In this document: one piece after another, positions 24,129 through 64,000 of the stretch
Position numbering within the stretch: the first letter of the stretch is position 1
Layout of the letters: every line of letters starts with the position of its first letter
DNA from: Schmidtea polychroa
Taxonomy: Eukaryota
Direction: 5' to 3'
Length of the DNA stretch: 64,000 bases
NCBI GenBank assembly: GCA_044892525.1
Contig: CM097886.1
Span: 28,396,001-28,460,000, forward strand
Made by a program: the position numbers and the translations under genes
The notes under the pieces: generated by a model
What the model saw: the letters and a program-made list of their open reading frames with translations, nothing else
The model's database searches: none
Told to the model about the DNA's origin: nothing

Positions 24129-26269
24129 TATACTTAAATGAATTACCGAATTAACAGTAGAATAAATAGTATTAATAGCATACATTAGTTAATTGGTAAG
24201 TTATGAAAAATGATAAATTTGGATCTTTTAGGTTTAATTTTTCTGTATATGTTCTTATAATGATACTGATATTAATATCTTGACTAATATTCAACCTGGG
24301 AAGGGCCGTAACTAAAAACATTTGTAATTAAAAAAATTTTAAGAGCTTATATATAACCTAAATTAGTAATTTTAATATTAGTACTGTTCGTAGTATAACT
24401 TGGGGGTATTTAGAATATGGTGGGTTACAGGTAGCCAGACATCTTACCCTTTCGTGCTGTTTCCAGCGTAACCCAGAAAACAAATGATGATCCTACCAAC
24501 TGATACCCGATGAGTGATCAAAGTTGATACTGTATCAAGTGGGTGAATGCTCGCAAAAAGTGAGCACACTACTTGCACTACAATTGTCGGGTAGTCTTTG
24601 GGTTCACGGATTATCGATAGAAGATGTACGTCCGATTTACTCTGGTCCCTTGACTATTGTTTTCCCAAATCATGCAATTTTCCCCTCAATCTCATCAAAC
24701 TAACATACATCACACCAGTGTCAAAGTATTATAATTTTATTTACAAGCTAATCATATTGTTCATTTATTGTTCACAAAGCGGTTTGAGTTGTGACGATCC
24801 TGATCCGACCGAAGGTCCGTGTTCAGCCATCCACAGTCGTTTCAATCGTTCTCTTCCGTCTCGCCCTAGCCGTTTGCGCTTAGACTTGGTTGTTTTGGCT
24901 GAGTGGATTTCGTCCAGCTCCGTAGACATTGGTCGGATGGCTGCCGTAACATGTTCATATATGGTTTTCTGATTCAGGCATGTCTCCATTGCACGCATTT
25001 GCAACTTCAGGGCGCGGATTTTGGCTTTGTCCTGAGCACTTTGGAGTTGCAATTTTTGGATTTTGTTCATACGCTTGTGCATGACTTCGGGGCGAAACCA
25101 AGTCCGTTCCATCTCTCGGCATCGCTCCTTGAACTTAGCTGACTTGAAGGCGCTCGACCTGTTGTTGGGCCTGTTCCCTGTCTTTTCGGAGGTTCTAGAA
25201 TAGTTTGTACACTAAATTACAAACATGATTAAGTGGGCTTCTTACATACTCTTCTTCTTCTCTGCGTGAGGGCATCATCAAACTCAAGTTTCTACGGATA
25301 CACAACGAATATTAAGCCCTTGAGTGCATTCTAAATCTCTGTATTCTAGCTTAAACAAATTTAATCGAATGCGAAGGCTTATGACAATATTGTTTATTAA
25401 TATTAAAGGTATTACAAATTATGAGATCACTATATTATAATTAAGAATGTAAATCACAAATTATTCGTCATACACACAGATAAGAGTGAACATTCACAAA
25501 TTATCGTTATTATTATTTCGTCGCAAAATCACGAATTTGTTTTTAACTTCGTGGAGTCGTCTTTCGGGGTCTGCAACGCCTTCTCCCTGGTACTGGCTCG
25601 ACTTCGGCCTCCTCGATGGGCCGACCGGCTTCGACCGCTTGGAGCTGGGCTTGGATTCGTCAGAGCTCATATTGTGTTGTGGTTATTGCACTGATGGCCC
25701 AATCCCGAGTTTCTACTAGCCGATTATTGTCCGGCTCGGTTTTGACCCTAGAAGGGGCATCGGGTTCGGGTCCACTACGAATTACAGGACCCCAATTGTC
25801 GAGATCCAGGCCCCGATTCTAATCATAAATTCTGTACGATATATATCGGGTGCGAAGTCGGGTGATCATCTCATCGTGTCGATCTTCTTCACTGCGAGTA
25901 CTGGATTGTGACATTTCTATATAGGATAAGAAAATTCAAGGGCACTGACGAATTTAGTTCTTGTTTTTAAATCCAAACGTCTTATTTAGAACTCCGACTA
26001 TGTCGTAGCATAAAGGATAGGTCGAATGGTAGACTATATTACACATAAATCTTAATTTATGTTAGAAATTAGATTACTTTTTATAGATCAAATTGAAAAT
26101 TTTATGGAATTACATCATGAATTTATATTATCATTAATTTAACCTTATCATTAATTTTATATTAAAATTCAAATTATACTTAAGTGGTAGAAAATTTAGA
26201 CATTAAATGGTAGTTAAATTAAGAATTTATCAAAATCATGTTTTATATTAGAAATCAAATTGTATTGAG

Positions 26270-26512: not shown

Positions 26513-27569
26513 TATTAATATGTATAATATTAATATGTATAAATATAATATTATAAAAATTTTTAAATACCTGTTCTTGAAATATATTAACATATTATTT
26601 TAACAAAATTAATCTCTTTCTTTTTCTATTAATTTGGTTAAAATAGTATGTTAATATATTTCAAGAACATGTATTTAAAAATCCCGGGACTAATCCCGGG
26701 ATCCCGGTAGAACAGATTAGACAATTAATGATGATTACATTATGGAGTTAATAATTATCACACCTTTGTTTTACTATAATAATAGTGTTCTTATTGAGAT
26801 CATTATTCGAATTGTAATTACTAAATCGTTGTTTATACTTCAGTCAAGGTTTACTCGTATAAAGAAAACTTAGTCTCGATGATCCAGTTGATCCACTTCA
26901 CCATGATTATTATATTATTATTATTGTTCATCTTATTTGACTTCTACATCAGCATGGACTATTCCAAATTCTTGATCTGGTAATGGTTCACGTTCCGGTG
27001 GCTATTTGCTGAATGCGCGTTAGACCGAAAGAGAGTACTCTATGAATTGAGAGTTGAGGGATATTTCCACTCAAGAATCAAACTATGATCGACAGTTTCC
27101 GATAGTTTCCAGTTGCAAGCTGCTGGCGTTCAATGGTAAGCCTAGTTGTGATGGATCCGGCGAGCATTATCCTTGATTTAGCAACCGGAAGATTTTTCAA
27201 GGCCAAAGTTTTCCTTGTATTGAAATGTATTGAAATGGGCCAACCACAAAAAATGAGCAGTTCGGAATGACCAATCCTATACTTCTCTATTGTGATTTTC
27301 TAAGCAACAGGCTGAAATAAAGTTATATGTACATTCTCTAGTCTTGATTTAGTTGTTTATTTTTATCTCACGCATAGTGCTTAGTTGTAATTTAAGCTAT
27401 CAATATTGGTACCGTATTTGACCCTCATATTATCGGGGGCGGGGGTTTACAAAAATATTAATTTCTACTTGTATATTGAATGCAAGCTGAGAATGTATAA
27501 AAGGTGGAATTAAATCAATCAGCTAATGGTCAGTTCATAAGATTTGAGGATGGTTTAAGAAATTTCAGA

Positions 27570-35784: not shown

Positions 35785-36417
35785 CATTACATAACTTCCC
35801 CCTTTAAAACCGGAGGTTAACATGAATCAATAAAAAGTGAAAGTAATAACATTGTTACAATAACCATTTTTTTAATTTTTCTTTGTATGTTTTATGGATC
35901 TGGTACCGGATCCATGAGTGGATGTACGAGGATACGGTACCAGTACAGCCAAAAATAGAGCCCTACAACAAACTGTGGAAGGAGGCTCTGATGCGCGCCC
36001 TCGAAGAAGGACGACTGCATCGGATCTAAAATAAGATCCTGAAGAGCGAACTCGAAGACCCGGACGGAACCGCCCGACTACTTTGCAGTGAGGATAGGCT
36101 TGCCTATGATGGATTTTGTTTGTTTGAGTGGCTTCGAATTAAGGTATGATAAGGAAATGAGATCCGGGAGCACAAACTAAAAGAGATGGACCAGGAAAAT
36201 CGGACGTAGGCCTTCTGTTGGCAGTCCGTGGACCCAAGGGAGTACGGGACAGTTATAGTATACAGAGTATACTCACTTTCTGCTAGTACTCCAACCCTTG
36301 ATACATTACCAAAGTTGATCACTCAACGGGTATCAAGTGGTCAAACTTCAATTGTATTCTGGGTTACGCTGGAAACAGCACGATGAGGTAAAATGTTTGA
36401 TTACCTTAAACCCGCCA
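35785..36417 (+). mobile_element. 3' fragment of a third LTR subfamily (C)
   Basis: 36195-36417 aligns with 42630-42862 and ends AAACCCGCCA; CATTACATAACTTCCCCCT resembles the motif near 40755-40773; 5' end not found. Confidence 0.65.
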
Positions 36418-39104
36418 TTTGACAAATAAAATTATAAAAAAGAACGACATTTTGCAAAAGTTACTTTTAGTGAATCAAATTTTAAAATTTAATCGAGAGT
36501 TGTTTTTTATAAAAGTTTTTTTTTGTGAATTTTTACTGTTTTGGCTTTCAGTTTGTTCGTAATAAATGTAACTTGCAAACTTTAATTTAGAATTATATAT
36601 CTAATTTTACTTCGTTCAAATAAAAAGACATTAAAGAACTCCCACTTTTTACTTGTTTTTATTTCAACAGAGTGAGGCAAGATAAGTAAAGCAGTAAGAA
36701 GAATTTAGTTATCACCTGAAAGAACCAGATTTGTATGAGCGGATAAAATGCTTTTCTAAACTCAACCAACATTTAATAGTGAAAAGTAAATCTTTTTGTA
36801 TTACAGTGCTGGCGTGTGATTTAGATTGAAAAGGAGCTAGAAATTGACTTCAGTTAAATTCAAAAAGTTTGAGATCTTCTCAGTTGATTTCAAAAATGAT
36901 CATTTTAGTCGTGAGGCTTCTGGACCATCAGAGAATAGAAGAAATTCACCGGGCATGATTGAGAGTAAAACGACTATCATGTCTTAACAACCCGTGTGAG
37001 CACCATCAGCGTTACCGAAAAGATAAATTATTATTTTTTTAAATCTCTGTAATGAAAGGTATAAACAAGAATAAACCTAAGGTATAAACCTAAGGACTTT
37101 CCATTGCATAAAACTTTTTGTTAGACACTTATTCTAACAATATACACTCCTCCACGAAAAACTTAGACTTTTCCGCCATGAATTCAATTATTTAATTTTT
37201 AATTAATTTTATGTTCAATAAACCGTTTCATGGAAATCCGATTCTTTATAAATTCAAAGATCTTCTGGAACTTTTAAATATTGGTAAATTCGAGAGTTTT
37301 TTTTTGTTCATCTCTGATTTATCTTTGTTTTCCTCTAAAATTTCTTCTTATCTACATTTCGACAATAGATCGTTGTTTCAATTGTTAAAATATTTAAATA
37401 ACACTTGATAAGGGCAGTGCCGAAAATTTGAAATAAATAAGAAAAAAAATGAAGATAATCGGAATTCAAAAGTTAATACTTGACAATTTTTAAATGTTTC
37501 GAGTGTTGGGCTAGAACTGATTTCTAGACCCAAAGTTGGGAATGGGACGAAATGTGTCAGTACACAACACGCATACCCAGCATTAAGTTTACTTAAATAA
37601 AAATATATAAAACACCAAGTAAACAATGATAATAGAGAGATAATATACCCAAAAATAAAACATCTGAATTAAAAATAAAATAAAACACGAGCAAGAAGTA
37701 TTACACGAAAACTTACTCAAATATAACCGAAAGACATAAAACAACAAAAAACAAATTCGAATAAAGGCGATTAGTAAAAATTAAAAAAAAAAAATTAAAG
37801 AAAATCTTCATAAAATCTTACGTAAAGAAAATTATATCGATATTTTGAATAAAAATCCAGAACAATTCATAAAAATGGCGAAATCCATCATGACGGCCAA
37901 ACGACCCAATAAAATTTATAAAAAATAAATATTTTAGTTTAAAAAATAAATATTTTAGAAAAGAAATCATAAAAAACAATTTAAAAATAAGAAATAGATT
38001 GAATTTAGCATGGACTGTTCTGGAAATGCTGAAATCCATCATGGAGGCAAATTTAATAAAAAATAATTCGAAAATAAAATTTCAAAAATAAAAACAAAAA
38101 TTCTTACTGAAAAATCGCCATCAAAATCGATAAAAATTAAAAATCGAATGTTCGAGAATTAAAATAATCTGAATTTGTTTTACTGCATCAATGCACGCAT
38201 GTATACTTACACGTCAAACAGAGGCTATATAAACTAACACATTTCGTCACTTTTTAAGCAAAGAAAAAAAAATGCAAATGAATATTTTTACTCTTATGCC
38301 AAATTTTTGGTTTTGATTTTTCTGAGATTGTAGGTAAGGACGATTTCATTGTGAATTATAAATTATTATTATTGAAACCTTGTTTTCATTATTTCTTTTT
38401 AACTATAGAAATGTAGGTTTGAGTGAGATCGTCGGTTATCATTGATTTTGAAGCGAGATCCCAGTCAACCCTGCACCTATGCACTTCATCATCGATGAGT
38501 AAACAGCCCACAATGATCGCAGGCCACTGCCTGGCACGCACTTATCAATATTATTGGTTTTTTTTGTTCAGGTCATTCGGAGGTCGCACCACTTCATGGT
38601 TCTGCCATGGAGTTAAGTCGATGAAATCCTCCGTCTGACTCTACCTATTTATTATAGGTCAGCCGTAAAGGGTTGACTTACCACACAACAGTAAGGTTTG
38701 TCGTAGTGGTCACAGTGGGGCCGCGAAAGCAAACACTCTTCCCGACTTTCAATACATGAATAACTTACATAGTTAAAATCTACATCCAAAATCATCACAA
38801 TACAATACACTAAGGTTAATAAACAGAGTAGATCTCAGACCTAAATTAATCACAACTCTACAACTCACAATTAATGTAGACGGTTAAATATCATCAAAAA
38901 CCAACTCTACCTATACGTTTGTCGAATCTAGATTTATAAATGTCCTAAATAAATTTTCTAGTAATAATGTAAAGTAAAGATTTTTTTCTAAATGATTGAT
39001 TTAGTAGCGATAGTATTCATAAAGGTGTTCGACATGCGTATCGGCAAGACTTGGATTTTAAATTGAATAGACTCTGAACTAACTATAAAAATACAAATCG
39101 TAAA

Positions 39105-40010
39105 CCCATAAAAGTATAAATTATCATCTCAATTGCATAAAAATATGAATTATACTTATAGATTTAATTTCTTCAAAATATAAATTATGATTAGTTATAA
39201 AGGTATAAATTACAAATTTAATTTTTCAAAAATATAAATTACAAGTTTATATTGACTGTAAAATTATAAATTATAACTCTAAGTTAATTACAAAAGTATA
39301 AATTATAATCCTAATTTCATAAAAATATAAATTATAATTAGTTATAAAAGTATAAATTATAAATTTAATTTCCTGAAAATATAAATTACAAATTTACATT
39401 GACTATAAATTATAAATTATAACTCTAAGTTAATTACAAAAGTATAAATTATAATCCTAATTTCATAAAAATATAAATTATAAATTATAACTCTAAGTTG
39501 ATTGTAAAAGTATAAATTATAATCTTAATTTCTTCAAAATATAAATCATGATCTTAAAAGTATAAATTATAAAATTATATTAGCTACAAAATATAAACTA
39601 TAAATTTACCTTAACTTCATAAAAATATAAATCATAAACTTAAAAATATAACTTATAAAATTATATTAGCTTTAGAAATATAAACTATAAATTGAACTTC
39701 ACCAAATATAAATTATACACTTAAAAAAAAAAAATAAATTATAAAATTATATTAGCTTTAAAATATAAACCATAAAATTAGCTTCATAAAAATATAAATT
39801 ATAAACTTAAAAATACAAATTATAAAATTATATTAGCTTTGGGAATATAAACTATAAATTGAACTTCACCAAATATAAATTATAAACTTAAAAGTATAAA
39901 TTATAAAATTATATCAGTTCTAAAATATAAACTATAAATTTAACTTCATAAAAATATAAATTATAAAATTATATTAGCTTTAAAATATAAACTATAAATT
40001 TAACTTAACT
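39105..40010. repeat. Degenerate AT-rich tandem array inside the LTR (copy at ~54658-55563)
   Basis: Repeated AAAATATAAATTATA / AAAAGTATAAATTATA / TTATATTAGCTTT modules. Confidence 0.85.
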
Positions 40011-40346
40011 TAGATTGCCTTTAACATCATAGTTGAAAATTTTTCATCAAAGACCCCCCATAAACCATATAGTCATCAACTACCACCTAAATATACTAAA
40101 TTAGCTTATCTTAATATATATTTAACTTATATTATATTTTAAAATATAAATTGAAAATTTTCATAAATGACCCCCCTTCAAATTATGTAGCCATTAACTA
40201 TTCCTTAGGTATACTGAATTGTATCATCTTCGTATAGAGTCAAATTATATTTCAAACCAAAAAAAAAAAAAAAAATAATAATTCCATAAATTTTCGTAAA
40301 TGATCCCCCCCCCATATGTAGTAATCTTATAAAAATATAAATTTAC

Positions 40347-40377
<31 letters not shown>

Positions 40378-41177
40378 GTTATTATTATTATTATTATTAT
40401 TATTAGCATTGTTACCAGTAACATTATCACTCTTACTATTATTATTACTATTATCATTATTATTATTATATTATTAAAATAATTATCTTTATTTCATAAA
40501 AATAAAATTATAAAACAAATTATTGATTTTGGGATTCCCCTATCTCTAAATTTAGTTTCAATGGCCCTATCTTCCAATAAAATTACGGAAAATCACTAAA
40601 ATCTATTTTTAGTAACACCCCCCCCCTGAAAACGACATCAATATTATTAATTTAAATTATATCCATATATGTATATATGTGTGGGTGTATATGTATGTGT
40701 ATATATAAGTGGATGTGTGTATGTACATACCGATTTATAAAACAACCTTATAACCATACGATAACCTTCCCCCTCAAGACCCCTGTTATGTAATGGTCAC
40801 AACCCCTTTAAGGTGATGGAACGAGGATAGAGTAGTTTACTGAAGTAATTTAGTAGAATCATTTATTAATTTATTAAAATTATTGGATTTATTTTTAACT
40901 AGATCAAAAGAAGAAAAAGAAAAACAAAGACTAAGTTTATTGATTTCGATCATCAAATTTATTCACATAATTGTTTCTTTGAATCATATTCATACCAAAA
41001 AGTCCTTCGAGCTCAGTTGATGGACCATCCCGATGAAATACATTTCCTGGGGTTGGAAAATGGAAAACTTATATTAAAATATCTTTCAGAATTTCTTTTA
41101 GATTTCCACAATTAAATAATTCCAAATTATTTCTCACAAATATATTCGATCAAAAAGAATTTTAATATTTTATTTAA

Positions 41178-41846
41178 TTACAACATCCTGAATTTATTTC
41201 TTTGCTTGGCTGCTTTAAGATCATAAATGGGCATTTTTCATTTATTAATCGGATAAGATCAGTTTTTCTGTACAACCTTTACATTCTTCACCCCAGCTTT
41301 CTAATATTTTTTGAGATCTTTAACGCGAGCTTTGTTTAGATTAATACCAGTAAGATCAATAGGTTTGTCTGAAAAATAGTTGAATTAATATTTAAAATCT
41401 TAACTGAACATACCATATTTTAATTCACCAATTTGTGCATCAATTGCTTTTAGTTTTTCAGACTTTTTCAGCGGGCATAACCCAACTCAAAGGCCGAGAC
41501 AAATGTTTTACAATATATGCAGTAGATGTTACCAATCCTCCAATATAATAACACTAAAAATAAATTACAATTTTATAGTAATCAGTTATAATACCTTACC
41601 AGACTTTATTCTTTTCCTTTACTTGTTTTGCTCATCTTTTTGAATTTATTTTCAATATTTTCGATATTTGTACTTTCATCTCCATCTAGACTATCTTTCA
41701 GGCGTCTCACAAACTTAACACAAACTGAACAATTTTTAAATATAATAAAAATAAGTGCCAAATACCTTCGCAATTATTTTCATTAACTGTAGCTGACATT
41801 ACATAGTAAACAATGATTAGAAAAGAAAAACTGATAAAATTTTCAT
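41178..41846 (-). pseudogene. MANF: Captured MANF/ARMET gene copy, 4 exons, disabled (in 5' LTR)
   Basis: Reconstructed MKILSVFLFLIIVYYVMSATVNENNCEVCVKFVRRLKDSL...[38 protein letters not shown](C)[66 protein letters not shown]; GT-AG introns 41725-41765, 41554-41599, 41369-41413; one nonsense codon, a 2-bp deletion and several 1-bp homopolymer deletions. Confidence 0.92.
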
Positions 41847-42870
41847 TGCAAAATATTACTAATATAAAAAAAAATGGTTTGTTAAAAAAAAATAATTAGT
41901 TAAAACAAGTTTAAAATACTTCAAACTGACGTATAAGTTTTGTTTAAAATGTAAGTAACGAGTATTGTAAAATTAATTTAATATTATTATAAATTTTGAA
42001 TTAAAATTTTCTTAAAATTCTAGAAAAAAAAAAATCTATTATTAATAGAAAACAAATTTTTAAAAATAAATAAAGTTTGAGTCAATTTGAATTTTCTAGA
42101 AGTATCTCTTAAAATTATATAGGGAATTGTTTTGTAACAGTTATTGATGTATTTTGAATTTATTTAACTTGAATTAAAAATATAATATTAACAAAAATGT
42201 ATTGTGAGATTTTGATTGTTGATCTAACCATCTCTCTATAACTACCCGGGCTCAACAAAGGGGAGTGTCATTGTAGGTCAACTAGGACAGTCATAGTCAC
42301 CGCGAAATACGCTTAGTCAAATAATACGCGGTCATAAACAATCATGGTTCTTGTAAAGTTATTATATTTTGTTGTTGTGGTTGGTGAAATTTCTGACCCT
42401 TATTTGTATGTTCACTAATATATAAGTTGTTTGTTTTTTGATTATTTTCTAATTAAATTCATTATTCCCAAAAATTTCTTAAGGTATGTTTAATAAACTT
42501 TGGCTATGTTTCACTTAATTTGTGGTATTGTATGAACAGGTTTTAATGGATTAATGTATGATTCCTGATGACTTATGATCGTTTGAGGATAGAAAGTTTG
42601 TATAGGCATAGTTGAGAAAGTAATTATAATAAGGGACCTGCGTAAATCGGACATATATCTTCTAACGATAGTCCGTGAACCCCGTAGAGTGCTCGACAAT
42701 TACAGTGCAAGTAGTGCGCTCACTTTTTGCGAGCACTCACCCTCTTGATACAGTACCAACGTTGATCATTCAACGGGTATCAAGCGGTAAACAATGTTGT
42801 ATCTTGGGTTACGCTGGTAACAGCACTAAAGAGCAAAATATTTGATCATCAGTAACCCACCATACAAATT

Positions 42871-42888
42871 TGGGGGCTCAGCCGGGAT
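42871..42888 (+). promoter_or_regulatory. Primer-binding site, tRNA-Pro-like
   Basis: TGGGGGCTCAGCCGGGAT, 16/18 match to the canonical TGGGGGCTCGTCCGGGAT, 8 nt after the LTR end. Confidence 0.85.
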
Positions 42889-43749
42889 ATTTAAACTTTC
42901 TTGGTAAAGAACCTGTAAGTAGACGGGAATGCATAGCAGTTTTTTGATCAGGAAATGAAATGCTTTATGCAAGAGTAAGAAAGATTGTTTTCTCAAATAA
43001 CTAGACATGATGTGTGAATATGCGTGTATGATCAAAATGAATGTTGAATGTTGTACATGATGAATAAAATGTTTTAAATTATGTAAATATAGAAAATCGA
43101 TAAAACTGGGTATGAGAATAATGTATGAGCGTTCCGTGTTGATGGGACAGAATGTTGATGGGTAAGAAATGAAATAAAAATCAAAAATAAAAAAAATTGT
43201 AAATATAAACAACTAATACTTTGGATATAAGAAAATAATAAAAAATTCAAAAATAGGGAAAAGGGGGGGATAGAAAATAGCGGTATATAGAAAAAGGGGA
43301 TAAAGCATAAAACAGTGAATTGCGAAATAGAAATAGATAGGTGATGCAATTAATTAAAAATAGGGGGAAGATGTAAAAATAAGTTAAAGATTAAAGGGTT
43401 ATATTGAGTACTTGATCAAATGACTAAAATTATGGACACGCTGGGATCAAAAGGGTTACGTAGACTAAGATAATAAACTAGAGGGAACGGATAAAAATGT
43501 GCGGAACATCATTTAATGGATTGGGAGCCTAAACTAACAGGGTAAAACAGCTATTGAACTTACTTAATTTGAATAAGGAAATAAATGGGTAGAGGTAAGC
43601 TAATTAAAGGGGAATAAGAACACTTAATAAAATGCTGAATTAATAAAGTATAACTTGATGGAATTAACCGGCTACATTATAAAGAAACTTGAAAATTCGT
43701 AAATTTAACTAACAACTCACTACAAAGATTGAATTGAAAAGCAGAGCAG

Positions 43750-45880: not shown

Positions 45881-46842
45881 GGATTAAAATGAGTTGATTA
45901 AACCGGCCAGAGAGCCGATGGTAATTGAGTGAAATGATTTAAATGAAATAAGAGAGTTAATTAAACCGGCCAGGGAGCCGATGGTAAATAAATGTAGACG
46001 CAGAGATCGCGCGAACCAAAGCATCGATGATTAACTATAAACAAACGATTAAGATGAAATTGATTAAATTGAATAGATTAAGTGCGACAAAGATGTAATG
46101 AGTAAAGGAAAATTATGATAGAGCGCCGGCGCAAGAGAAACTGAAGCCAAATTTTTGAATGGGGAAAAGCGAATGAGGAGACATTAATTAAGTTACTGAT
46201 GAGTTTTATATGTATATGACTAATGATATATATTTTCAATTATATAATTGATGTTGTGATTATATGATAGATAATTGATACGACGATATAGATAATTGAT
46301 ACGAGTTATAGATAATTAAAAATGGACTTAAATTCAAAGGGGGTGAGTAGCAAAAAGTAAAAGCGTACCATGAATTAGAAAAGGAACAGCGAGAGAAATA
46401 ATGAGTAAAGAGTAGTATAAAATAAAGAAAATAGGGAAATAAATGAAGGGTAGGATAAAATGAATAAAATATTATGATATGTACTAGGAGTGTTAATTAT
46501 TTTAGAATAAGTCAATCAATAAGTCAGAAGGAAGTCAATACAAGCCAAGAATTCAAGAGAAATAAAGAGAAATCAAAAATTCAAAAGAAATCAAATAAGG
46601 AATCAAGAGAATCAAACGAGGATAAAAGAAAGCTAAACAAAGTCAAATTAAATAACAAGAGGAAAATTAAAGCGTTGGCCAACGAAACACAGTGAAATTC
46701 AAAAGGGATTATTAAAGCAAGAAAAATTGATAATAAAGCCAATCGAACGAGATCGCCGAGCAAAGGAGGCTCTAGTTTATTAGGAAACGCAGGGAGACAA
46801 AGAGCCAAGAGAAACAGAAGAATCAATAAGAAACCAGCGTCA

Positions 46843-48573
46843 GTGAAAACATTATTTGAATCAGACAGCTTAACCAACGAAAGTGAAAACAGCGACGATA
46901 TTAAAAGAAACGAATTATATCCGGTAACTGATATCAAACCAACAGACAAGGAAGATAGTAGTTCAGGCATAACAAGTTTGTGTCGAGATATAATGTTAGA
47001 CGGAAACCAAGTGAACAACCCGAATGGGTCAGAGTCGACATACACACCCGAGATAAACCATGTCAACGTCAATGTTGGAGAATTTAGAGAAAGATTTCGA
47101 GGAGAACCATTCGATGGGAATATTAATGAACTAGAAACGTTTATAAAAGAATTCGAGGTATATATTACGATATGTCACTGGCCAGACATAGTCGTACGAG
47201 AGCGAATACCATTATATTTAAGAGGAAGTGCACAAGATGTATATTTAGAGGCAAAGTGTGATGCAACAAAACTAAAAACATGGAAATCAATAAAGAATTT
47301 TTTAATAAAAACATTCGGTAGCAAAAGGGAAGTAAATCGCAAAATGTTGGATTTTCTGCATCGAAAGCAGAAATACAATGAGTCAAACGCACTATATGCA
47401 TGTGAATTAAGACGACTGGCAAAAGAAGCATTCGATTCAAATCAAACAGTTCCGGAAGACAAGATAATAGCCGTATTCGTAGAGGGTATGAAAAGAAAGG
47501 ACATACGAGCAACAGTGGGTTGCCGAGCACCAGACACGCTCGAGGAAGCATTAAAAATCGCTAATAAATGTGAAAACTACTTGACTCCAGTACAAGTAGC
47601 AGCAATGGCAGCAGTACCAATAGCTACAACACCAACAACGACAACCGAAATTAATCAAACCAACAATGAAAATCTAGGAATGAATCAATTTATCTCAGAA
47701 TCGCAACAGTTGTTCAAGGCGCCAAAAACGACAAATCCAGATAACAGAGGTAATATTCAATTTTACACTAATAATTTCAGGAGCAACGAGAACAATAATC
47801 AGAAGTGTAACATATGTCAACGACTAGGACATTGGAGCAACGAGTGTTATAAGACAAGGATGTGCCAAAATTGCGGTAAAAGGGGGCACACAGAAAATAT
47901 ATGCCGAGGACCAATGATGTCGATGAGAGGAGGAAGGACTAGAACCTGCTACAGTTGCAACCAACTTGGACATGTGGCGAGAGAATGCGCAATGAGGACA
48001 AAACATAATCAACCAAGAGCAAACGATCCAAGTCAAAATATACAAGTCAACATCATGCAGGAAATTGAACAGTTGAAAAAGATGATCCAACGGATACCAG
48101 AGGATATCCAAAAACGACCAACAAGAGAACAACAAGATCAGCAACGAATCGAGGGGCAGAGACCACTAAACGAAAAAGCCAGAGAAATTCAAAAAAAATG
48201 GAAAAAGCGAGAAACCAACACCGGAAGAATAAATATGATGAGATTAATGAACAAAGGGGAACCGCACACTGCGGAGCAGTGTGTTAACAAGGAAGGGAGC
48301 GATATGACCGTAATCAACGAGACAAAAGTGATAAAAGAAAATGGGTCACATCAATTGACGGAGCAATTGACAGAACTGAGTAGCGAGGATAAAATAAAAA
48401 TAATACAAGGGTTCACCAAAGAAGAAAAAGAAAAGAGACGAAGAAGAGATGAAACAGGCACGAACCAAAAAGCAACGAGATTGTTACAAAGAATCGAATT
48501 CAGAGGGTATTACTACAAAAAATTGAAGATAGAATTAGAAGAGAAGAACCAAATTTTACGGATGAGCAAGTAA
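46843..48573 (+). CDS. gag: Retrotransposon Gag with three CCHC zinc knuckles
   Basis: Capsid-like PFDGNINELETFIKEFE..W..IPLYLRGSAQDVY; knuckles CNICQRLGHWSNEC, CQNCGKRGHTENIC, CYSCNQLGHVAREC. Track start is GTG; first ATG near 46993; the frame is open back to a TGA at 46693. Confidence 0.92.
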   Translation: MKTLFESDSLTNESENSDDIKRNELYPVTDIKPTDKEDSSSGITSLCRDIMLDGNQVNNPNGSESTYTPEINHVNVNVGEFRERFRGEPFDGNINELETFIKEFEVYITICHWPDIVVRERIPLYLRGSAQDVYLEAKCDATKLKTWKSIKNFLIKTFGSKREVNRKMLDFLHRKQKYNESNALYACELRRLAKEAFDSNQTVPEDKIIAVFVEGMKRKDIRATVGCRAPDTLEEALKIANKCENYLTPVQVAAMAAVPIATTPTTTTEINQTNNENLGMNQFISESQQLFKAPKTTNPDNRGNIQFYTNNFRSNENNNQKCNICQRLGHWSNECYKTRMCQNCGKRGHTENICRGPMMSMRGGRTRTCYSCNQLGHVARECAMRTKHNQPRANDPSQNIQVNIMQEIEQLKKMIQRIPEDIQKRPTREQQDQQRIEGQRPLNEKAREIQKKWKKRETNTGRINMMRLMNKGEPHTAEQCVNKEGSDMTVINETKVIKENGSHQLTEQLTELSSEDKIKIIQGFTKEEKEKRRRRDETGTNQKATRLLQRIEFRGYYYKKLKIELEEKNQILRMSK

Positions 48574-48653
48574 AAGAAAAAGTAAAAGACAACTGATTCA
48601 GGAAAAATGAGTGGTTCGAAAAGAAAGAACCAAGTAACAGAGCCAATATAAAC

Positions 48654-51392
48654 ATGCTGAGACAAATACAGAATGATCAGGCGGACCAGGAAGACGAGAA
48701 AAGTGCGGTGAGTAGCCTGAGAAGTGAATTATTTCAATCAAGTGATGAAAATAATGAACAAGGAACACCTCAAAATAACGAAGAGGGTGAGAGCGACGAT
48801 ATGGAATCACCGATAGAAACTGACGATGAGGAAATATTTGAGGAAATTTCCGACACGGTATCGGAAAGAGAACGAAATGAGAGCTATATCAACGAACCAA
48901 CATACAGAAAATGTATAAAACTGATAACTGAAGCATACCAGTGGGAAGGAGGTATATTAACGGCAACATGGAAAGATTTGGTGACGAAATATAAAGGAAA
49001 ATTGAAAGAAGTCGAGCCAGATCAATGCCGGGTGAGTATTCAACACCCCGAAACTCAGATGCAGATTACTGAATTAAAAGTAACAAATATTGATGAACTG
49101 TATATTTGGGTACAGGAAAAGAATAAACAGCTATACGACAATTGTTATAAAGTTAAAATGAGCATACATCTAGTAGATATGATGAGATGGCCAAACGAAG
49201 TTAATATCTTAATCTTAAAGAAAAACAGAGACAGCGAATCAGTAACGGAAATACTGAGGAAAATCCAACAGATATTCAACAATGAAGTGGAACCAGAAAT
49301 AGAAAAGACTGAACAAAAGATAATGAAGGAAAATCAAATAATCGTAGTAAAACAAGCAATCGATCAAGCGAAGAAATATATTAACAGATTTAGGGAAAGA
49401 TGGCCGCAGCTAATGAAACAGTTTGTCAAAGACGTACGGGATACTGAGATTATGGGATTTGAATATAAACGAGCAACGGAGTTGATATCAAAATATGGTG
49501 AATACGAGAGAATCAGATGTGAACAAGAATTACCATGGCCATCCAACAGAAAAGTGACAATAGTAAGAGAATCACTGAAGAATAGTCATTTAAATAAACA
49601 CGAAGAAATGATCAAAACATCACATGTCGAAGACGACATTTTTGGAAAAGGCCGGAGTGGAAAAAATGACAAAGACCATAACGACAAAAATGAGGAAGAC
49701 GACGGGAACCATGAAAGGAACAACATAAATGGGAACTCAAACGAACGAGATAATGAAGAAGACAAGGAGTCAGAAGATGACGACGAAGACTTGAAGGATA
49801 CTGAGGACAACTCAGACCAAAGTGAAGACAACCAACATAATGAAACAGAGAACGACAAACGAAAGTCCCCACTGCATAACATAGTAATGCGGAAGAATCT
49901 AAACCAGTCACTCCTACTACAAATTATCCTAATAATACTAACGTCAATTTGCCTAACAGAAACGAAAAATACGCGAATTACGAGAGGAAATCTGAAAGAA
50001 GGCGAACTATTCATGATAAAAGTCAGCGGCAACAACGGAAACGCGGTCGGGATATGCATCCAATTGATGGAAGGAACCGGAGTAAGTTGTGATTTTAGAA
50101 CGATAACAAAAGGGAGGATTTTCAATAGTCAAAATGTAGAACCTGAATTATGCGGAGACTACAACATTTGCGAAGACATAACATCAGAAGAAAAAGAATT
50201 GGAAAGAGCTAACGAAACCGGAGTACATGTCGCAATTAAAGCTACAATGGAAGGTATCGAAATAATAGATAAAGGAAATTTGCCAACAACGCAAATATGT
50301 TTTAGAGATGACGAAGACATATGTATAACGGTGGACATGAAACGAGATCGCGAATTTTTTTGGACAAACGTAAAACCAAACACCAACATGGTGGTATGCG
50401 CAGGTACCCAGGCAATAGTGGTATGTAAAGCAGTTAAAACCGCGCAAATAAAAAGCAGGCCAAAAAGTATGGCTAGTAAACGATATCAACCAAGGATCAA
50501 ACCGGCAATTAAGAAACGCCAGAAACAATCCCGTAGGGGAATGATAAGAGGACAGCACCAAACCAAGAAAAACAAAACAGTAATATGGATCAAAGATGAG
50601 AGACGAGAAGTACTAGTAAATGTCGAATTCAACAAGAAAAGAGAAGAAGTAATCACGGTCAGAAACCAAGGTGAAGAACCAATAGTAAGAGTATGTGTAC
50701 TAAACAGGACAGGAATAGTCGACTGCATAGAAACACTACTTGACAAAGGTGCAGAAGTTAAAATGACAATAGGAGAAAGAAAGGGACGATATCACATATG
50801 CGTTCTTAAAAACGGAAGCGATTTAAGTTCATGCCAAGCAATAACCAGACAACGACCACGGATGATAAACATACTATTGACAACCAGAAAACCAAAAGAA
50901 GTGGAAAAGCCAAAAGGAAACGAACATCTAACGGCAGAAGAAACGAAACAGTTATACCAGATGCTCAAGAAAAATAAAACACAAGAGGCAACTACAACAG
51001 AAACTAAAATGATGATAACGACAGGAAAATTCAACGAGACACTGATAACCGTTAAAATGATGTGGATCGCTAGCGCAATAATGAGTGTAGTGATAGCATC
51101 AATAATAATCCAATGGATAAGAACCTCCAAAATATGTAAACAAAAACCTAAAGGCAGAAAAAGATGGCCACAAGTGGAGAATTCCGAATATGGTATTCCA
51201 ACAGAAAACCCGAATCCAGAAGAGTACGAAGCGATTGAAGATCCAAGGTCAAGCAGACTATGGACGCAAGAATTACTCAGAATACAAACCCTAAACGATT
51301 GGGTAAACGAATTTGACATATACCGGCTAACGGATGAAAGATATGGGGGGATGCGCACATTGCATTCAGGTCCCCTGGCAACAATGGTATAA
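48654..51392 (+). CDS. 912-aa ORF2: acidic N-terminal half plus type-I membrane glycoprotein (Env-like) module
   Basis: Signal-peptide-like MRKNLNQSLLLQIILIILTSICLT from ATG 49887; Cys-paired beta-rich ectodomain with six N-x-S/T sequons; TM MMWIASAIMSVVIASIIIQWI; tail with YxxI motifs; no RT, RNase H or integrase motifs. Confidence 0.75.
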   Translation: MLRQIQNDQADQEDEKSAVSSLRSELFQSSDENNEQGTPQNNEEGESDDMESPIETDDEEIFEEISDTVSERERNESYINEPTYRKCIKLITEAYQWEGGILTATWKDLVTKYKGKLKEVEPDQCRVSIQHPETQMQITELKVTNIDELYIWVQEKNKQLYDNCYKVKMSIHLVDMMRWPNEVNILILKKNRDSESVTEILRKIQQIFNNEVEPEIEKTEQKIMKENQIIVVKQAIDQAKKYINRFRERWPQLMKQFVKDVRDTEIMGFEYKRATELISKYGEYERIRCEQELPWPSNRKVTIVRESLKNSHLNKHEEMIKTSHVEDDIFGKGRSGKNDKDHNDKNEEDDGNHERNNINGNSNERDNEEDKESEDDDEDLKDTEDNSDQSEDNQHNETENDKRKSPLHNIVMRKNLNQSLLLQIILIILTSICLTETKNTRITRGNLKEGELFMIKVSGNNGNAVGICIQLMEGTGVSCDFRTITKGRIFNSQNVEPELCGDYNICEDITSEEKELERANETGVHVAIKATMEGIEIIDKGNLPTTQICFRDDEDICITVDMKRDREFFWTNVKPNTNMVVCAGTQAIVVCKAVKTAQIKSRPKSMASKRYQPRIKPAIKKRQKQSRRGMIRGQHQTKKNKTVIWIKDERREVLVNVEFNKKREEVITVRNQGEEPIVRVCVLNRTGIVDCIETLLDKGAEVKMTIGERKGRYHICVLKNGSDLSSCQAITRQRPRMINILLTTRKPKEVEKPKGNEHLTAEETKQLYQMLKKNKTQEATTTETKMMITTGKFNETLITVKMMWIASAIMSVVIASIIIQWIRTSKICKQKPKGRKRWPQVENSEYGIPTENPNPEEYEAIEDPRSSRLWTQELLRIQTLNDWVNEFDIYRLTDERYGGMRTLHSGPLATMV

Positions 51393-52524: not shown

Positions 52525-53057
52525 AATCTTCAAATCTAGAGCCGTCATCGAGATGAGATCCCAAACAACCGAGTGTATAAATCCTGATATAAACCGACAA
52601 TGATCCTGATATAATCTGACAACGATCTTGAGTTGATTGAAAATGTTCTTATTATGTGTTGACAATGATCCTGATTCGATTGACAATGATCTGAAAATGA
52701 TCTAAATTTGATTTAACAATGATCCTGACATGATTCGACAATGATATGATTTGACTATTATTGTGATTTGATGCCAATATTATATATTACTTTGATATTA
52801 TTTGAGCATAACAATTGGATTAAATTTTGTGTGGACCGACCGTGGTCTTCTTTCTCTTCATCTTTAAACCAATCTGTAGCATGTAGCGTATCAGTAGAAA
52901 CTTTTTATGTATGTGGGTATTGAGGTCACGACCCTGTAGCTCGTGGACCCAATTACATGTAGGCACTTGTAATAAAGTGCAACCAATTCTGTCTAATTAT
53001 ATCTTGAACTGTTGATTAAATTGCGGGTCGCAATTTTATGGGCCCCCGAGTGTTTTA

Positions 53058-55899
53058 TGTTGGGCTAGAACTGATTTCTAGACCCAAAGTTGGGAATGGG
53101 ACGAAATGTGTCAGTACACAACACGCATACCCAGCATTAAGTTTACTTAAATAAAAATATATAAAACACCAAGTAAACAATGATAATAGAGAGATAATAT
53201 ACCCAAAAATAAAACATCTGAATTAAAAATAAAATAAAACACGAGCAAGAAGTATTACACGAAAACTTACTCAAATATAACCGAAAGACATAAAACAACA
53301 AAAAACAAATTCGAATAAAGGCGATTAGTAAAAATTAAAAAAAAAAAATTAAAGAAAATCTTCATAAAATCTTACGTAAAGAAAATTATATCGATATTTT
53401 GAATAAAAATCCAGAACAATTCATAAAAATGGCGAAATCCATCATGACGGCCAAACGACCCAATAAAATTTATAAAAAATAAATATTTTAGTTTAAAAAA
53501 TAAATATTTTAGAAAAGAAATCATAAAAAACAATTTAAAAATAAGAAATAGATTGAATTTAGCATGGACTGTTCTGGAAATGCTGAAATCCATCATGGAG
53601 GCAAATTTAATAAAAAATAATTCGAAAATAAAATTTCAAAAATAAAAACAAAAATTCTTACTGAAAAATCGCCATCAAAATCGATAAAAATTAAAAATCG
53701 AATGTTCGAGAATTAAAATAATCTGAATTTGTTTTACTGCATCAATGCACGCATGTATACTTACACGTCAAACAGAGGCTATATAAACTAACACATTTCG
53801 TCACTTTTTAAGCAAAGAAAAAAAAATGCAAATGAATATTTTTACTCTTATGCCAAATTTTTGGTTTTGATTTTTCTGAGATTGTAGGTAAGGACGATTT
53901 CATTGTGAATTATAAATTATTATTATTGAAACCTTGTTTTCATTATTTCTTTTTAACTATAGAAATGTAGGTTTGAGTGAGATCGTCGGTTATCATTGAT
54001 TTTGAAGCGAGATCCCAGTCAACCCTGCACCTATGCACTTCATCATCGATGAGTAAACAGCCCACAATGATCGCAGGCCACTGCCTGGCACGCACTTATC
54101 AATATTATTGGTTTTTTTTGTTCAGGTCATTCGGAGGTCGCACCACTTCATGGTTCTGCCATGGAGTTAAGTCGATGAAATCCTCCGTCTGACTCTACCT
54201 ATTTATTATAGGTCAGCCGTAAAGGGTTGACTTACCACACAACAGTAAGGTTTGTCGTAGTGGTCACAGTGGGCCGCGAAAGCAAACACTCTTCCCGACT
54301 TTCAATACATGAATAACTTACATAGTTAAAATCTACATCCAAAATCATCACAATACAATACACTAAGGTTAATAAACAGAGTAGATCTCAGACCTAAATT
54401 AATCACAACTCTACAACTCACAATTAATGTAGACGGTTAAATATCATCAAAAACCAACTCTACCTATACGTTTGTCGAATCTAGATTTATAAATGTCCTA
54501 AATAAATTTTCTAGTAATAATGTAAAGTAAAGATTTTTTTCTAAATGATTGATTTAGTAGCGATAGTATTCATAAAGGTGTTCGACATGCGTATCGGCAA
54601 GACTTGGATTTTAAATTGAATAGACTCTGAACTAACTATAAAAATACAAATCGTAAACCCATAAAAGTATAAATTATCATCTCAATTGCATAAAAATATG
54701 AATTATACTTATAGATTTAATTTCTTCAAAATATAAATTATGATTAGTTATAAAGGTATAAATTACAAATTTAATTTTTCAAAAATATAAATTACAAGTT
54801 TATATTGACTGTAAAATTATAAATTATAACTCTAAGTTAATTACAAAAGTATAAATTATAATCCTAATTTCATAAAAATATAAATTATAATTAGTTATAA
54901 AAGTATAAATTATAAATTTAATTTCCTGAAAATATAAATTACAAATTTACATTGACTATAAATTATAAATTATAACTCTAAGTTAATTACAAAAGTATAA
55001 ATTATAATCCTAATTTCATAAAAATATAAATTATAAATTATAACTCTAAGTTGATTGTAAAAGTATAAATTATAATCTTAATTTCTTCAAAATATAAATC
55101 ATGATCTTAAAAGTATAAATTATAAAATTATATTAGCTACAAAATATAAACTATAAATTTACCTTAACTTCATAAAAATATAAATCATAAACTTAAAAAT
55201 ATAACTTATAAAATTATATTAGCTTTAGAAATATAAACTATAAATTGAACTTCACCAAATATAAATTATACACTTAAAAAAAAAAAATAAATTATAAAAT
55301 TATATTAGCTTTAAAATATAAACCATAAAATTAGCTTCATAAAAATATAAATTATAAACTTAAAAATACAAATTATAAAATTATATTAGCTTTGGGAATA
55401 TAAACTATAAATTGAACTTCACCAAATATAAATTATAAACTTAAAAGTATAAATTATAAAATTATATCAGTTCTAAAATATAAACTATAAATTTAACTTC
55501 ATAAAAATATAAATTATAAAATTATATTAGCTTTAAAATATAAACTATAAATTTAACTTAACTTAGATTGCCTTTAACATCATAGTTGAAAATTTTTCAT
55601 CAAAGACCCCCCATAAACCATATAGTCATCAACTACCACCTAAATATACTAAATTAGCTTATCTTAATATATATTTAACTTATATTATATTTTAAAATAT
55701 AAATTGAAAATTTTCATAAATGACCCCCCTTCAAATTATGTAGCCATTAACTATTCCTTAGGTATACTGAATTGTATCATCTTCGTATAGAGTCAAATTA
55801 TATTTCAAACCAAAAAAAAAAAAAAAAATAATAATTCCATAAATTTTCGTAAATGATCCCCCCCCCATATGTAGTAATCTTATAAAAATATAAATTTAC

Positions 55900-55933
<34 letters not shown>

Positions 55934-58418
55934 GTTATTATTATTATTATTATTATTATTAGCATTGTTACCAGTAACATTATCACTCTTACTATTATTA
56001 TTACTATTATCATTATTATTATTATATTATTAAAATAATTATCTTTATTTCATAAAAATAAAATTATAAAACAAATTATTGATTTTGGGATTCCCCTATC
56101 TCTAAATTTAGTTTCAATGGCCCTATCTTCCAATAAAATTACGGAAAATCACTAAAATCTATTTTTAGTAACACCCCCCCCCTGAAAACGACATCAATAT
56201 TATTAATTTAAATTATATCCATATATGTATATATGTGTGGGTGTATATGTATGTGTATATATAAGTGGATGTGTGTATGTACATACCGATTTATAAAACA
56301 ACCTTATAACCATACGATAACCTTCCCCCTCAAGACCCCTGTTATGTAATGGTCACAACCCCTTTAAGGTGATGGAACGAGGATAGAGTAGTTTACTGAA
56401 GTAATTTAGTAGAATCATTTATTAATTTATTAAAATTATTGGATTTATTTTTAACTAGATCAAAAGAAGAAAAAGAAAAACAAAGACTAAGTTTATTGAT
56501 TTCGATCATCAAATTTATTCACATAATTGTTTCTTTGAATCATATTCATACCAAAAAGTCCTTCGAGCTCAGTTGATGGACCATCCCGATGAAATACATT
56601 TCCTGGGGTTGGAAAATGGAAAACTTATATTAAAATATCTTTCAGAATTTCTTTTAGATTTCCACAATTAAATAATTCCAAATTATTTCTCACAAATATA
56701 TTCGATCAAAAAGAATTTTAATATTTTATTTAATTACAACATCCTGAATTTATTTCTTTGCTTGGCTGCTTTAAGATCATAAATGGGCATTTTTCATTTA
56801 TTAATCGGATAAGATCAGTTTTTCTGTACAACCTTTACATTCTTCACCCCAGCTTTCTAATATTTTTTGAGATCTTTAACGCGAGCTTTGTTTAGATTAA
56901 TACCAGTAAGATCAATAGGTTTGTCTGAAAAATAGTTGAATTAATATTTAAAATCTTAACTGAACATACCATATTTTAATTCACCAATTTGTGCATCAAT
57001 TGCTTTTAGTTTTTCAGACTTTTTCAGCGGGCATAACCCAACTCAAAGGCCGAGACAAATGTTTTACAATATATGCAGTAGATGTTACCAATCCTCCAAT
57101 ATAATAACACTAAAAATAAATTACAATTTTATAGTAATCAGTTATAATACCTTACCAGACTTTATTCTTTTCCTTTACTTGTTTTGCTCATCTTTTTGAA
57201 TTTATTTTCAATATTTTCGATATTTGTACTTTCATCTCCATCTAGACTATCTTTCAGGCGTCTCACAAACTTAACACAAACTGAACAATTTTTAAATATA
57301 ATAAAAATAAGTGCCAAATACCTTCGCAATTATTTTCATTAACTGTAGCTGACATTACATAGTAAACAATGATTAGAAAAGAAAAACTGATAAAATTTTC
57401 ATTGCAAAATATTACTAATATAAAAAAAAATGGTTTGTTAAAAAAAAATAATTAGTTAAAACAAGTTTAAAATACTTCAAACTGACGTATAAGTTTTGTT
57501 TAAAATGTAAGTAACGAGTATTGTAAAATTAATTTAATATTATTATAAATTTTGAATTAAAATTTTCTTAAAATTCTAGAAAAAAAAAAATCTATTATTA
57601 ATAGAAAACAAATTTTTAAAAATAAATAAAGTTTGAGTCAATTTGAATTTTCTAGAAGTATCTCTTAAAATTATATAGGGAATTGTTTTGTAACAGTTAT
57701 TGATGTATTTTGAATTTATTTAACTTGAATTAAAAATATAATATTAACAAAAATGTATTGTGAGATTTTGATTGTTGATCTAACCATCTCTCTATAACTA
57801 CCCGGGCTCAACAAAGGGGAGTGTCATTGTAGGTCAACTAGGACAGTCATAGTCACCGCGAAATACGCTTAGTCAAATAATACGCGGTCATAAACAATCA
57901 TGGTTCTTGTAAAGTTATTATATTTTGTTGTTGTGGTTGGTGAAATTTCTGACCCTTATTTGTATGTTCACTAATATATAAGTTGTTTGTTTTTTGATTA
58001 TTTTCTAATTAAATTCATTATTCCCAAAAATTTCTTAAGGTATGTTTAATAAACTTTGGCTATGTTTCACTTAATTTGTGGTATTGTATGAACAGGTTTT
58101 AATGGATTAATGTATGATTCCTGATGACTTATGATCGTTTGAGGATAGAAAGTTTGTATAGGCATAGTTGAGAAAGTAATTATAATAAGGGACCTGCGTA
58201 AATCGGACATATATCTTCTAACGATAGTCCGTGAACCCCGTAGAGTGCTCGACAATTACAGTGCAAGTAGTGCGCTCACTTTTTGCGAGCACTCACCCTC
58301 TTGATACAGTACCAACGTTGATCATTCAACGGGTATCAAGCGGTAAACAATGTTGTATCTTGGGTTACGCTGGTAACAGCACTAAAGAGCAAAATATTTG
58401 ATCATCAGTAACCCACCA
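53058..58418 (+). repeat. 3' LTR (5361 bp)
   Basis: Near-identical to 37504-42862; followed by TSD CGAG. Confidence 0.95.
56734..57402 (-). pseudogene. MANF: Captured MANF/ARMET gene copy (in 3' LTR)
   Basis: Same sequence and lesions as 41178-41846. Confidence 0.92.
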
Positions 58419-58630
58419 CGAGTTACGACAAAGACATGATTATAAAATGATGATTGATGCATGAAAATAATTAAATTTAATTAAAAATAATTTATTAATT
58501 AAAATATTTCATCTTATTTGAATATAATTTCAAAAAGACTTCTGAAAGTAATTACGATAATATTCACTCATCAGAATTGCTAGTGTACCCCTAAATTTTA
58601 TTCAAATTAATAAAACTTGACAGTTTTTAT

Positions 58631-62606: not shown

Positions 62607-63296
62607 TATGAAAATTTGGTACTATATATGTAATAAAGTTGATACGTTATTCTATTTTTAGAAGTGAAAAGATAGTGAAAAGATCAATTGTAAAGATGTT
62701 ATAAAGGATCTTTACTAAAAGATAACTTCAAATAGTGAAAGTGGCATAATTAAAACAAAGCTACCAAACATGAAATATTCAGACCGATTTCAGTAGTATC
62801 ATTTTCAAAGGGATCGTAATTTTGCACAATATAAAATTAACAGATGTGCAATATCTGGCACTGGTTCAGTATCGTCATCTTTTGTGCAAGTATGATACTG
62901 GACAAGTACCCACTTTCTTTGGATATATAAAGATTTTGTACACTAAAACTAACATTTACACACTAAGTTTGACCCACTAAAATATCATTTTTGCAACTAA
63001 TATATTACGTCAGGGGTTCGAATCTTATTTTGCTCACGTAGCACCTAATGACCAAAAAAAATTGACAAATCACATATTTTTTCTTTGCCTAAAAATATCT
63101 TGTAAAAGATGTGAATTGTTGTTCTGTATGCTTTAATGTCATACAAGACAACCTTTACAATAAAAGCTTAATTTTTTAAACTTTTTTTTAAGCAGAAAAA
63201 ACATTTTTTTAATAGAGCTTTATTTAACTTTTTCAAATTTGAAAATGACACAAACAATCAATGGGATATTATATTGTTGTTAGTGGCATGTATGTA

Positions 63297-64000
63297 TGTT
63301 GGGCTAGAACTGATTTCTAGATCCAAAGTGGTGGGTTACTGATGATCAAATATTTTGCTCTTTAGTGCTGTTACCAGCGTAACCCAAGATACAACATTGT
63401 TTACCGCTTGATACCCGTTGAATGATCAACGTTGGTACTGTATCAAGAGGGTGAGTGCTCGCAAAAAGTGAGCGCACTACTTGCACTGTAATTGTCGAGC
63501 ACTCTACTGGGTTCACGGACTATCGTTAGAAGATATATGTCCGATTTACGCAGGTCCCTTATTATAATTACTTTCTCAACTATGCCTATACAAACTTTCT
63601 ATCCTCAAACGATCATAAGTCATCAGGAATCATACATTAATCTATTAAAACCTGTTCATACAATACCACATCTAAAATGTTTGAATATAAATTAAGTGAA
63701 ACATAGCCATAGTTTATTAAACATACCTTAAGAAATTTTTGAGGATAATGAATTTAATTATAACACAATCAAAAAAAAAACAACTTATATATTAGTGAAC
63801 ATACAAATAAGGGTCAGAAATTTCACCAACCACAACAACAAAATATAATAACTTTACAAGAACCATGATTGTTTATGACCGCGTATTATTTGACTAAGCG
63901 TATTTCGCGGTGACTATGACTGTCCTAGTTGACCTACAATGACACTCCCCTTTGTTGAGCCCGGGTAGTTATAGAGAGATGGTTAGATCAACAATCAAAA
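63297..64000. mobile_element. 32-bp LTR 5' stub (+) joined to an inverted LTR 3' end (-) that runs off the window
   Basis: 63297-63328 equals LTR nt 1-32 (one substitution); 63329-64000 is the reverse complement of ~42207-42862 with scattered substitutions and a short insertion near 63668. Confidence 0.9.

Follow-up and report, generated by a model that had tools for sequence, protein, structure and literature searches.

The question that this locus raises is what a short domain, which looks like the acceptor end of a tRNA and closes with CCA, is doing at the end of a long terminal repeat (LTR). We addressed it in a 64,000-nt stretch of the Schmidtea polychroa genome (GCA_044892525.1, contig CM097886.1, positions 28,396,001 to 28,460,000 of the forward strand), hereafter called the window. 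A preliminary description, made from the letters alone, had seen here a tRNA-like domain of a conserved 57 nt in three subfamilies (copies A, B and C), and had suggested that it might serve priming, template recognition or processing by RNase P or RNase Z. Our own answer is a different one. Namely, the domain is the last 57 bases of an LTR, with its CCA as the LTR end, and we consider it probable, on the strength of folding models, that the whole forms the predicted top of a U5-leader helix standing before a tRNA-Pro primer site, where it would hold the template in position for reverse transcription to begin. In copy A, the stems, the GNRA hairpin and the CCA all lie where the preliminary description had placed them, and the parts of the domain and its surroundings, in window coordinates, are as follows.

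42797..42805, forward strand: upstream U5 strand; TTGTAT (42797-42802) is predicted to pair with 42862-42867, i.e. the last LTR base and the spacer, and T42805 with A42859
42806..42812, forward strand: 5' strand of the 7-bp helix, GGGTTAC, whose pair 6 is seen as A-U, G-U and G-C
42813..42824, forward strand: GNRA-capped 4-bp hairpin, GCTG-GTAA-CAGC; an older subfamily has two of its pairs changed on both sides
42825..42851, forward strand: variable segment, 20-29 nt among subfamilies, containing TTTGA at 42841-42845
42852..42862, forward strand: 3' strand of the helix and ACCA (GTAACCC 42852-42858, A 42859, CCA 42860-42862); the last seven bases are an imperfect inverse of the first seven of the LTR (integrase attachment end)
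42863..42870, forward strand: 8-nt spacer from the LTR end to the primer site, expected from folding to form the 3' strand of the closing helix
42871..42888, forward strand: primer binding site (PBS), complementary at 18/18 positions to the 3' end, with CCA, of genomic tRNA-Pro(UGG)

The domain is part of a giant element, whose features, along with the other LTR ends of this kind in the window, are:

24418..24474, reverse strand: copy B of the domain, 57 nt, at the end of an old LTR without primer site
36361..36417, forward strand: copy C of the domain, 57 nt, at the end of a 230-bp old LTR fragment
37504..42862, forward strand: 5' LTR of a Gag-only Burro-type Gypsy element, 5359 bp, TG...CA, 99.9% identical to 53058-58418
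42631..42796, forward strand: conserved structured block upstream of the domain, the LTR portion common to copies A, B and C (72-81% identity)
46696..48573, forward strand: gag frame with Ty3 capsid and CCHC knuckles, sharing 71% identity with the gag of a 25-kb copy
48597..51392, forward strand: 931-aa frame without Pfam match; aa 1-311 share 73% identity with the polyprotein of the 25-kb copy, and the remainder is unrelated to it
53019..53057, forward strand: 3' junction, with a conserved hairpin and a G+C-rich motif where a polypurine tract is expected; the same non-purine motif is found in six families
53058..58418, forward strand: 3' LTR, with its own copy of the domain at 58362-58418, followed by host DNA
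63329..63385, reverse strand: fourth LTR end of the A type, an insertion into the first bases of another LTR, adjoining base 32 of its oppositely oriented start (63281-63329)

The element is flanked by the target-site duplication CGAG (37500-37503 and 58419-58422). It represents a 10.2-kb Gag-only form: no Pfam match to pol was found between the LTRs of the window, where gag and the 931-aa frame lie. Genome-wide, pairing the positions of LTR-PBS junctions with those of 3' junctions gives internal lengths of approximately 10.5 and 25.5 kb, and one 25-kb relative, from a family with a 50-nt domain, carries matches to gag, MATH/TRAF, a fusion glycoprotein, PR-RT-RH-IN, ankyrin and BIR, which is the gene make-up described for planarian Burro (PMC6431247, in part). 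Because this relative combines a similar gag with the Burro make-up, we take the element of the window to be a Gag-only Burro derivative. In particular, paired TG...CA LTRs with a target-site duplication, a tRNA primer site and gag are present in the window's copy, while the remaining genes are found only in the 25-kb relative. In other words, the likeness to Burro, or GYPSM1 (PMC6431247, in part), lies in the internal region of approximately 25 kb of full-size copies, in the CCHC knuckles of gag and in the possession of MATH/TRAF, in-line fusion glycoprotein, PR-RT-RH-IN, ankyrin and BIR, and the difference lies in the 10.2-kb Gag-only state of the window's copy. The second frame of that copy (48597-51392) departs from the Burro polyprotein after about 340 aa, its unrelated remainder has two hydrophobic stretches, and its product is a possible membrane protein. 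Elsewhere in the window, a kinesin motor frame (60660-62606) and a 901-aa frame without Pfam match (17279-19984) are probably host sequence.

Copies B and C, which had been taken to represent subfamilies of their own, turned out instead to be old remnants, with closest relatives only 90-91% identical and with a primer site after 0 of 49 ends of their type. The two ends of LTR copy B are separated by a 79-bp tandem array of about 70 copies (27400-33200), and no matching target-site duplication is found in its flanks. As for the length of 57 nt, it is right for copies A, B and C, but as a conserved length it does not hold, other subfamilies having domains of 50-59 nt. The genome contains 423 LTR-PBS junctions of the A clade (against 0 for a reversed-pattern control), and among the first 30 of these loci the domain measures 50 nt in 23 and 57 nt in 6, with one partial fragment; further subfamilies have 55-59 nt. 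The 50-nt form is that of the 25-kb family and, by folding, it is without the second hairpin. That hairpin had been reported in B and C and denied for A, where folding predicts a weak one too. At one locus (L091:2584-2633), an extra copy of the 50-nt domain occurs alone, approximately 1.1 kb downstream of the PBS, with non-LTR sequence on either side.

What, then, is the CCA? In 30 A-type loci, it is followed directly by unrelated DNA in 24 and by the 8-nt spacer and PBS in 6. All six families examined begin their LTRs with TGTTGGG, the exact inverse of which is CCCAACA. LTR copies other than the 5' one end in ACA in family G (22/24) and family E (20/20), with the flanks diverging thereafter, and families D and F end in CCAACA (one pair each compared). 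The A clade ends in CCCACCA, which differs from CCCAACA, the inverse of its LTR start, by a single base, so that one substitution separates the CCA from the common attachment end. The integrase is known to need the CA (PMC11181671, in part). Judged by the limits of the two repeats, the CCA is the exact end of the 5.36-kb LTR, and the presumptive integrase CA lies within an imperfect inverse of the LTR start. The C at position -3 is unique to the A clade, and the U5-helix reading does not explain it.

The surroundings of the primer site bear on the priming role that had been suggested for a tRNA-like end. This role is not supported, given that minus-strand priming is already served by the exact tRNA-Pro site 8 nt downstream. 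Genes for tRNA-Pro(UGG) stand in a 475-bp tandem array (L237-L242, G000:C1, about 130.9 Mb; 2183 pattern matches genome-wide), and the array is an abundant candidate source of primer. The A clade has a spacer of 8 nt between LTR and PBS and families D-G have one of 7 nt, where LTR elements usually have approximately 2 nt, and the cDNA end would therefore carry more extra bases than the usual two. Candidates for a primer activation signal, which would be complementary to the T arm of the tRNA, lie 170-230 nt upstream in A, E and G, and are not found in D and F; they are of the GAACCC type, with 6-7 of 8 matches, given here as raw match counts.

If the domain is an LTR end, its folding has to be considered together with what surrounds it. 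Folded alone and compared with 200 dinucleotide shuffles each, it gives z -3.98 in copy A (0/200) and z -3.09 in copy C (1/200), while the signal in copy B is weak (z -1.79, 12/200). The outer stem of copy C is indeed 5 bp, as had been claimed, which is due to decay of that copy, because, among 60 aligned ends, the pair-16 column holds a standard pair in 58 and the pair-17 column in 56. With its flanks, copy A folds at z -4.27 and leaves the CC of CCA in an internal loop. What is more, in 22 A-clade 5' junctions both the base in the place of a discriminator and the last A are predicted to be paired (P 0.95-0.96). The base before CCA, described earlier as a lone one, is A42859, which in context pairs with T42805, and this standard pair is kept in 77 of 79 ends, all filtered on stem motifs.

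The pairing across the LTR end recurs among families that share little else of the domain. Namely, families D-G have other U5 ends, another spacer and some 80-115 nt enclosed, and in them an upstream strand is again predicted to pair with the LTR end and the spacer. For the first five bases of the spacer, the predicted pairing with upstream U5 reaches a mean P of 0.68 or more in 35 of the 42 distinct 5' junctions, the other 7 falling below. When 100 random spacers are put in place of the family's own, those that match or beat it number 1 in A57, 1 in A50, 1 in E, 0 in F and 3 in G (one representative per family). Swapping spacers between the A clade and E, F or G brings the predicted pairing from 0.94-1.0 down to 0.01-0.25, in five of six families. 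Family D, on the other hand, does not discriminate: its own spacer gives 0.64, 13 of 100 random ones are as good, and swaps give 0.64-0.71. It is because of this family-specific spacer pairing that we see the conserved feature in a helix running across the LTR end and closing at the primer site, and not in a free NCCA. Across lineages, an upstream U5 strand is thus predicted to pair next to the PBS, and the helix overlaps the integrase CA, so it is, on present modelling, most likely of the retroviral PBS-segment kind.

How might such a helix work? The end of the 5' LTR would be transcribed into the leader of the genomic RNA, where the helix would form and present the PBS. The tRNA-Pro would then anneal beside it, and reverse transcriptase would copy spacer and U5, unwinding the helix in the course of making minus-strand strong-stop DNA. 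The 3' strand would double as the integrase end, so that its sequence, with the CA and the inverse of the first LTR bases, would be partly fixed by the integrase. To keep the pairing, the 5' strand would have to track it, which may be what gives the acceptor-stem look. The part of this that is read from the DNA comprises the LTR limits, the target-site duplication, the spacer, the primer site, the family-specific complementarity and, in both inner helices, a small number of compensatory changes; a priming role is proposed solely by analogy with retroviral PBS segments.

One could also argue that the helix is real and serves packaging, dimerisation or the marking of cDNA ends, with the 7-8-nt spacer to be removed, rather than the initiation of reverse transcription. 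The Gag-only element has retained the helix, and the spacer measures 7-8 nt in all six families, both of which fit such a use; yet in every family with a predicted helix, its end lies no more than a few bases from the PBS. The A-clade 3' junction (53031-53057) is complementary to the spacer and PBS (42863-42895) to a degree reached by 1-2 of 1000 shuffles, and a 5'-3' cyclisation is possible there, but in E and G the corresponding match falls short of significance (108 and 76 of 1000 shuffles). We regard this explanation as rather unlikely, and prefer a helix that positions the template for priming.

Do the copies of the genome bear witness to the inner helices? Our first alignment held 60 ends, i.e. 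copy C and 59 ends selected by motifs, and because these motifs overlap both strands of the stem, the high share of paired cells in it is partly built in. In this alignment the stems hardly vary, and the covariation signal does not reach significance (36-47 of 500 shuffles). A deeper search was keyed to the 5' strand alone, carrying G at pair 6, and gave 30 loci, 27 of them with a recognisable end; the partner of this G is T in 23 and C in 4, with a purine in none, and the older 56-nt copies among the 27 have both sides of the GNRA hairpin changed. Adding 19 of these ends (8 repeats of segments already included were omitted) extended the alignment to 79, in which there are 10 double-changed cells, against 2.3 after shuffling (0/500), and double changes at 4 pairs, against 1.8 (17/500). 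These compensatory changes modestly support both inner helices as candidates for conserved pairing. The support is only modest because the changes may stem from one lineage, and because the added rows were picked for variation. Covariation, on which the preliminary description had made its claim depend, is thus not significant in the narrower set and appears once the older subfamily is added, and with that addition the claim of a conserved RNA fold at the LTR end holds. The pattern GCAACCCACCA, used solely for finding candidates, is not enriched over its control (149 vs 323 matches); from it came 7 homologous ends with the 5' strand kept, 3 of them with a compensating G. Locus L095, considered as a compensated subfamily, proved to be a partial fragment behind unrelated tandem DNA.

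Would the domain nonetheless qualify as a 3' tRNA-like structure? We find this claim unsupported, for the following reasons: its CCA is the terminus of the LTR, four sister families have ACA in its place, neither the length nor the second arm is conserved, there is no T-stem, the NCCA is buried inside a longer predicted helix, and the element has a primer site of its own. A 7-bp acceptor-type stem is present. A T-stem (5 bp with a 7-nt loop, directly 5' of the 3' acceptor strand) is not, just 1-3 of the 5 pairs being formed in each of all 62 distinct A-clade ends. The base at the position of N73 is predicted to be paired both in the 5' context (P 0.96) and with host flanks (0.5-0.77), in place of an unpaired discriminator. 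ARAGORN gave 0 tRNA genes within the window, and Rfam at E <= 1 gave 4 weak matches in the window, none of them at LTR ends. Two further ideas were discarded. Namely, a descent of the domain from the primer tRNA-Pro fails, the likeness being not above that of shuffles (251-997 of 1000 as good), and a loop-loop pairing between the GNRA hairpin and the TTYRA segment fits, by inspection, B and C only.

An alternative that keeps the tRNA resemblance is that A-clade transcripts extend through the whole 3' LTR, and that the domain there would mimic a tRNA, its cleavage by RNase P or RNase Z creating the 3' end of the RNA and the spacer pairing protecting the 5' copy. Besides the 7-bp stem and NCCA, this would account for the T-loop-like TTYRA at -22 in 51 of 62 A-clade ends (-23 in tRNA-Pro), a feature that the U5-helix reading leaves unexplained; the strict form TTCRA is found in 12/62, and in 10 of 11 ends of the 50-nt group. 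At that place, however, TTYRA is absent from families D-G and from 12 young 58-nt loci. With host flanks, both C's of CCA are mostly unpaired (pairing P 0.16-0.46), which would favour a mimic, but N73 is predicted to be paired even then, the hairpin stacks on the 5' side, away from the position of a T-arm, and the absence of a T-stem, the ACA ends of the sister families, the lack of ARAGORN or Rfam matches and the lack of sequence likeness to tRNA-Pro all speak against it. Within 300 nt of the end, AATAAA occurs at no position shared across families, which is compatible with a non-polyadenylated end and uninformative by itself. In MALAT1, a paired trailer inhibits RNase Z, and this would fit a protected 5' copy, but the extended stem promotes cutting by RNase P (PMC8457004, in part), which would here mean a cut of the genomic RNA beside the PBS. 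By analogy, then, the leader-trailer pairing of MALAT1 cuts both ways for this alternative, which we hold to be very unlikely. The same applies to its fullest form, to which we would give little chance: that one Burro clade possesses a switchable tRNA mimic, with stem, TTYRA and CCA of the 3' LTR read by host tRNA-processing enzymes to yield a non-polyadenylated genome end, and with the spacer pairing of the 5' copy burying NCCA and protecting the primer site.

Within the 5' leader, the domain could also serve as a decoy that attracts a host protein with affinity for tRNA, for instance prolyl-tRNA synthetase, so that the primer is freed or delivered in the manner of the HIV-1 tRNA-like element for LysRS. 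Its location beside the PBS is that of the HIV-1 element (PMC11181671 and PMC10424219, both in part), and the near-invariant hairpin holds UGG, the anticodon of the primer. That said, this UGG sits in a stem and is altered in the older subfamily while the stem is kept, and families D-G, with the same primer, do without this hairpin. We find such a decoy quite improbable, and return to a U5-leader helix as the preferred reading.

Among known systems, the 3' tRNA-like structures of the Mauriceville/Varkud retroplasmids and of plant viruses are true RNA 3' ends used for initiation. The Burro element, in contrast, has a host-tRNA primer site, and in its 5' copy more element RNA follows the CCA. 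A stem followed by NCCA is shared with both kinds of structure. One criterion for a tRNA-like structure is interaction with a tRNA enzyme, be it a synthetase, RNase P, RNase Z or the CCA-adding enzyme (PMC10424219, in part). With mascRNA and MEN-beta (PMC8457004, in part), it has in common a size of about 60 nt, a 7-bp stem and a leader-trailer pairing that lengthens the stem, and it differs in having no T-stem and in its encoded CCA, which is the LTR end.

Note that the other end of the internal region is also peculiar. A polypurine tract before the 3' LTR is a general feature of LTR elements, and none is found in the six families, the last 15 nt in the window containing 5 purines. In its place stand a conserved hairpin, whose 7 bp enclose a 3-nt loop, and a G+C-rich motif lying 7-10 nt ahead of the TG (in the window and at L123, L126, L224, L226, L230, L231, L234 and L236); the A-clade 3'-junction pattern has 382 matches in the genome, against 53 for its control. 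The absence is common to the window's copy and the 25-kb relatives and does not separate them. The element's own CCA end, considered as the primer of the plus strand, has by inspection no complementary site at the 3' junction. We found nothing on this missing tract in the literature, as far as titles and the openings of abstracts go, and it is perhaps more surprising than the helix.

In RSV, U5-IR and U5-leader stems place a U5 helix near the PBS, overlapping the integrase CA. Burro itself was reportedly first described by Grohme et al. in 2018, and that description, with its supplements, may cover the ends. The available part of PMC6431247 holds nothing on the LTR-end structure, spacer or primer of Burro, and our literature search found nothing joining a tRNA-like structure to the primer site or CCA of an LTR retrotransposon, nor anything on the primer site of Burro in Schmidtea. 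Retroviral PBS segments overlap the CA of att and serve both reverse transcription and integration (PMC11181671, in part). In particular, the U5-leader stem and three-way junction of HIV-1 (PMC11181671 and PMC1865047, both in part) likewise put a U5 helix beside the PBS and over the integrase CA. The helix of HIV-1 encloses the PBS, whereas that of Burro closes 5' of it by way of the 7-8-nt spacer, and, unlike in retroviral PBS segments, the Burro families differ in the size of the enclosed domain, from 50 to about 115 nt.

A tRNA-mimic switch, if true, would be a new means for an LTR element to distinguish its two LTRs and to end its RNA. The U5-leader helix that we prefer is a finding useful for specialists in retroelements and, in itself, unsurprising. 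Its six families amount to a natural swap experiment, with an unusually long spacer between LTR and primer, and this reading would extend a retroviral design to the giant Gypsy elements of invertebrates.
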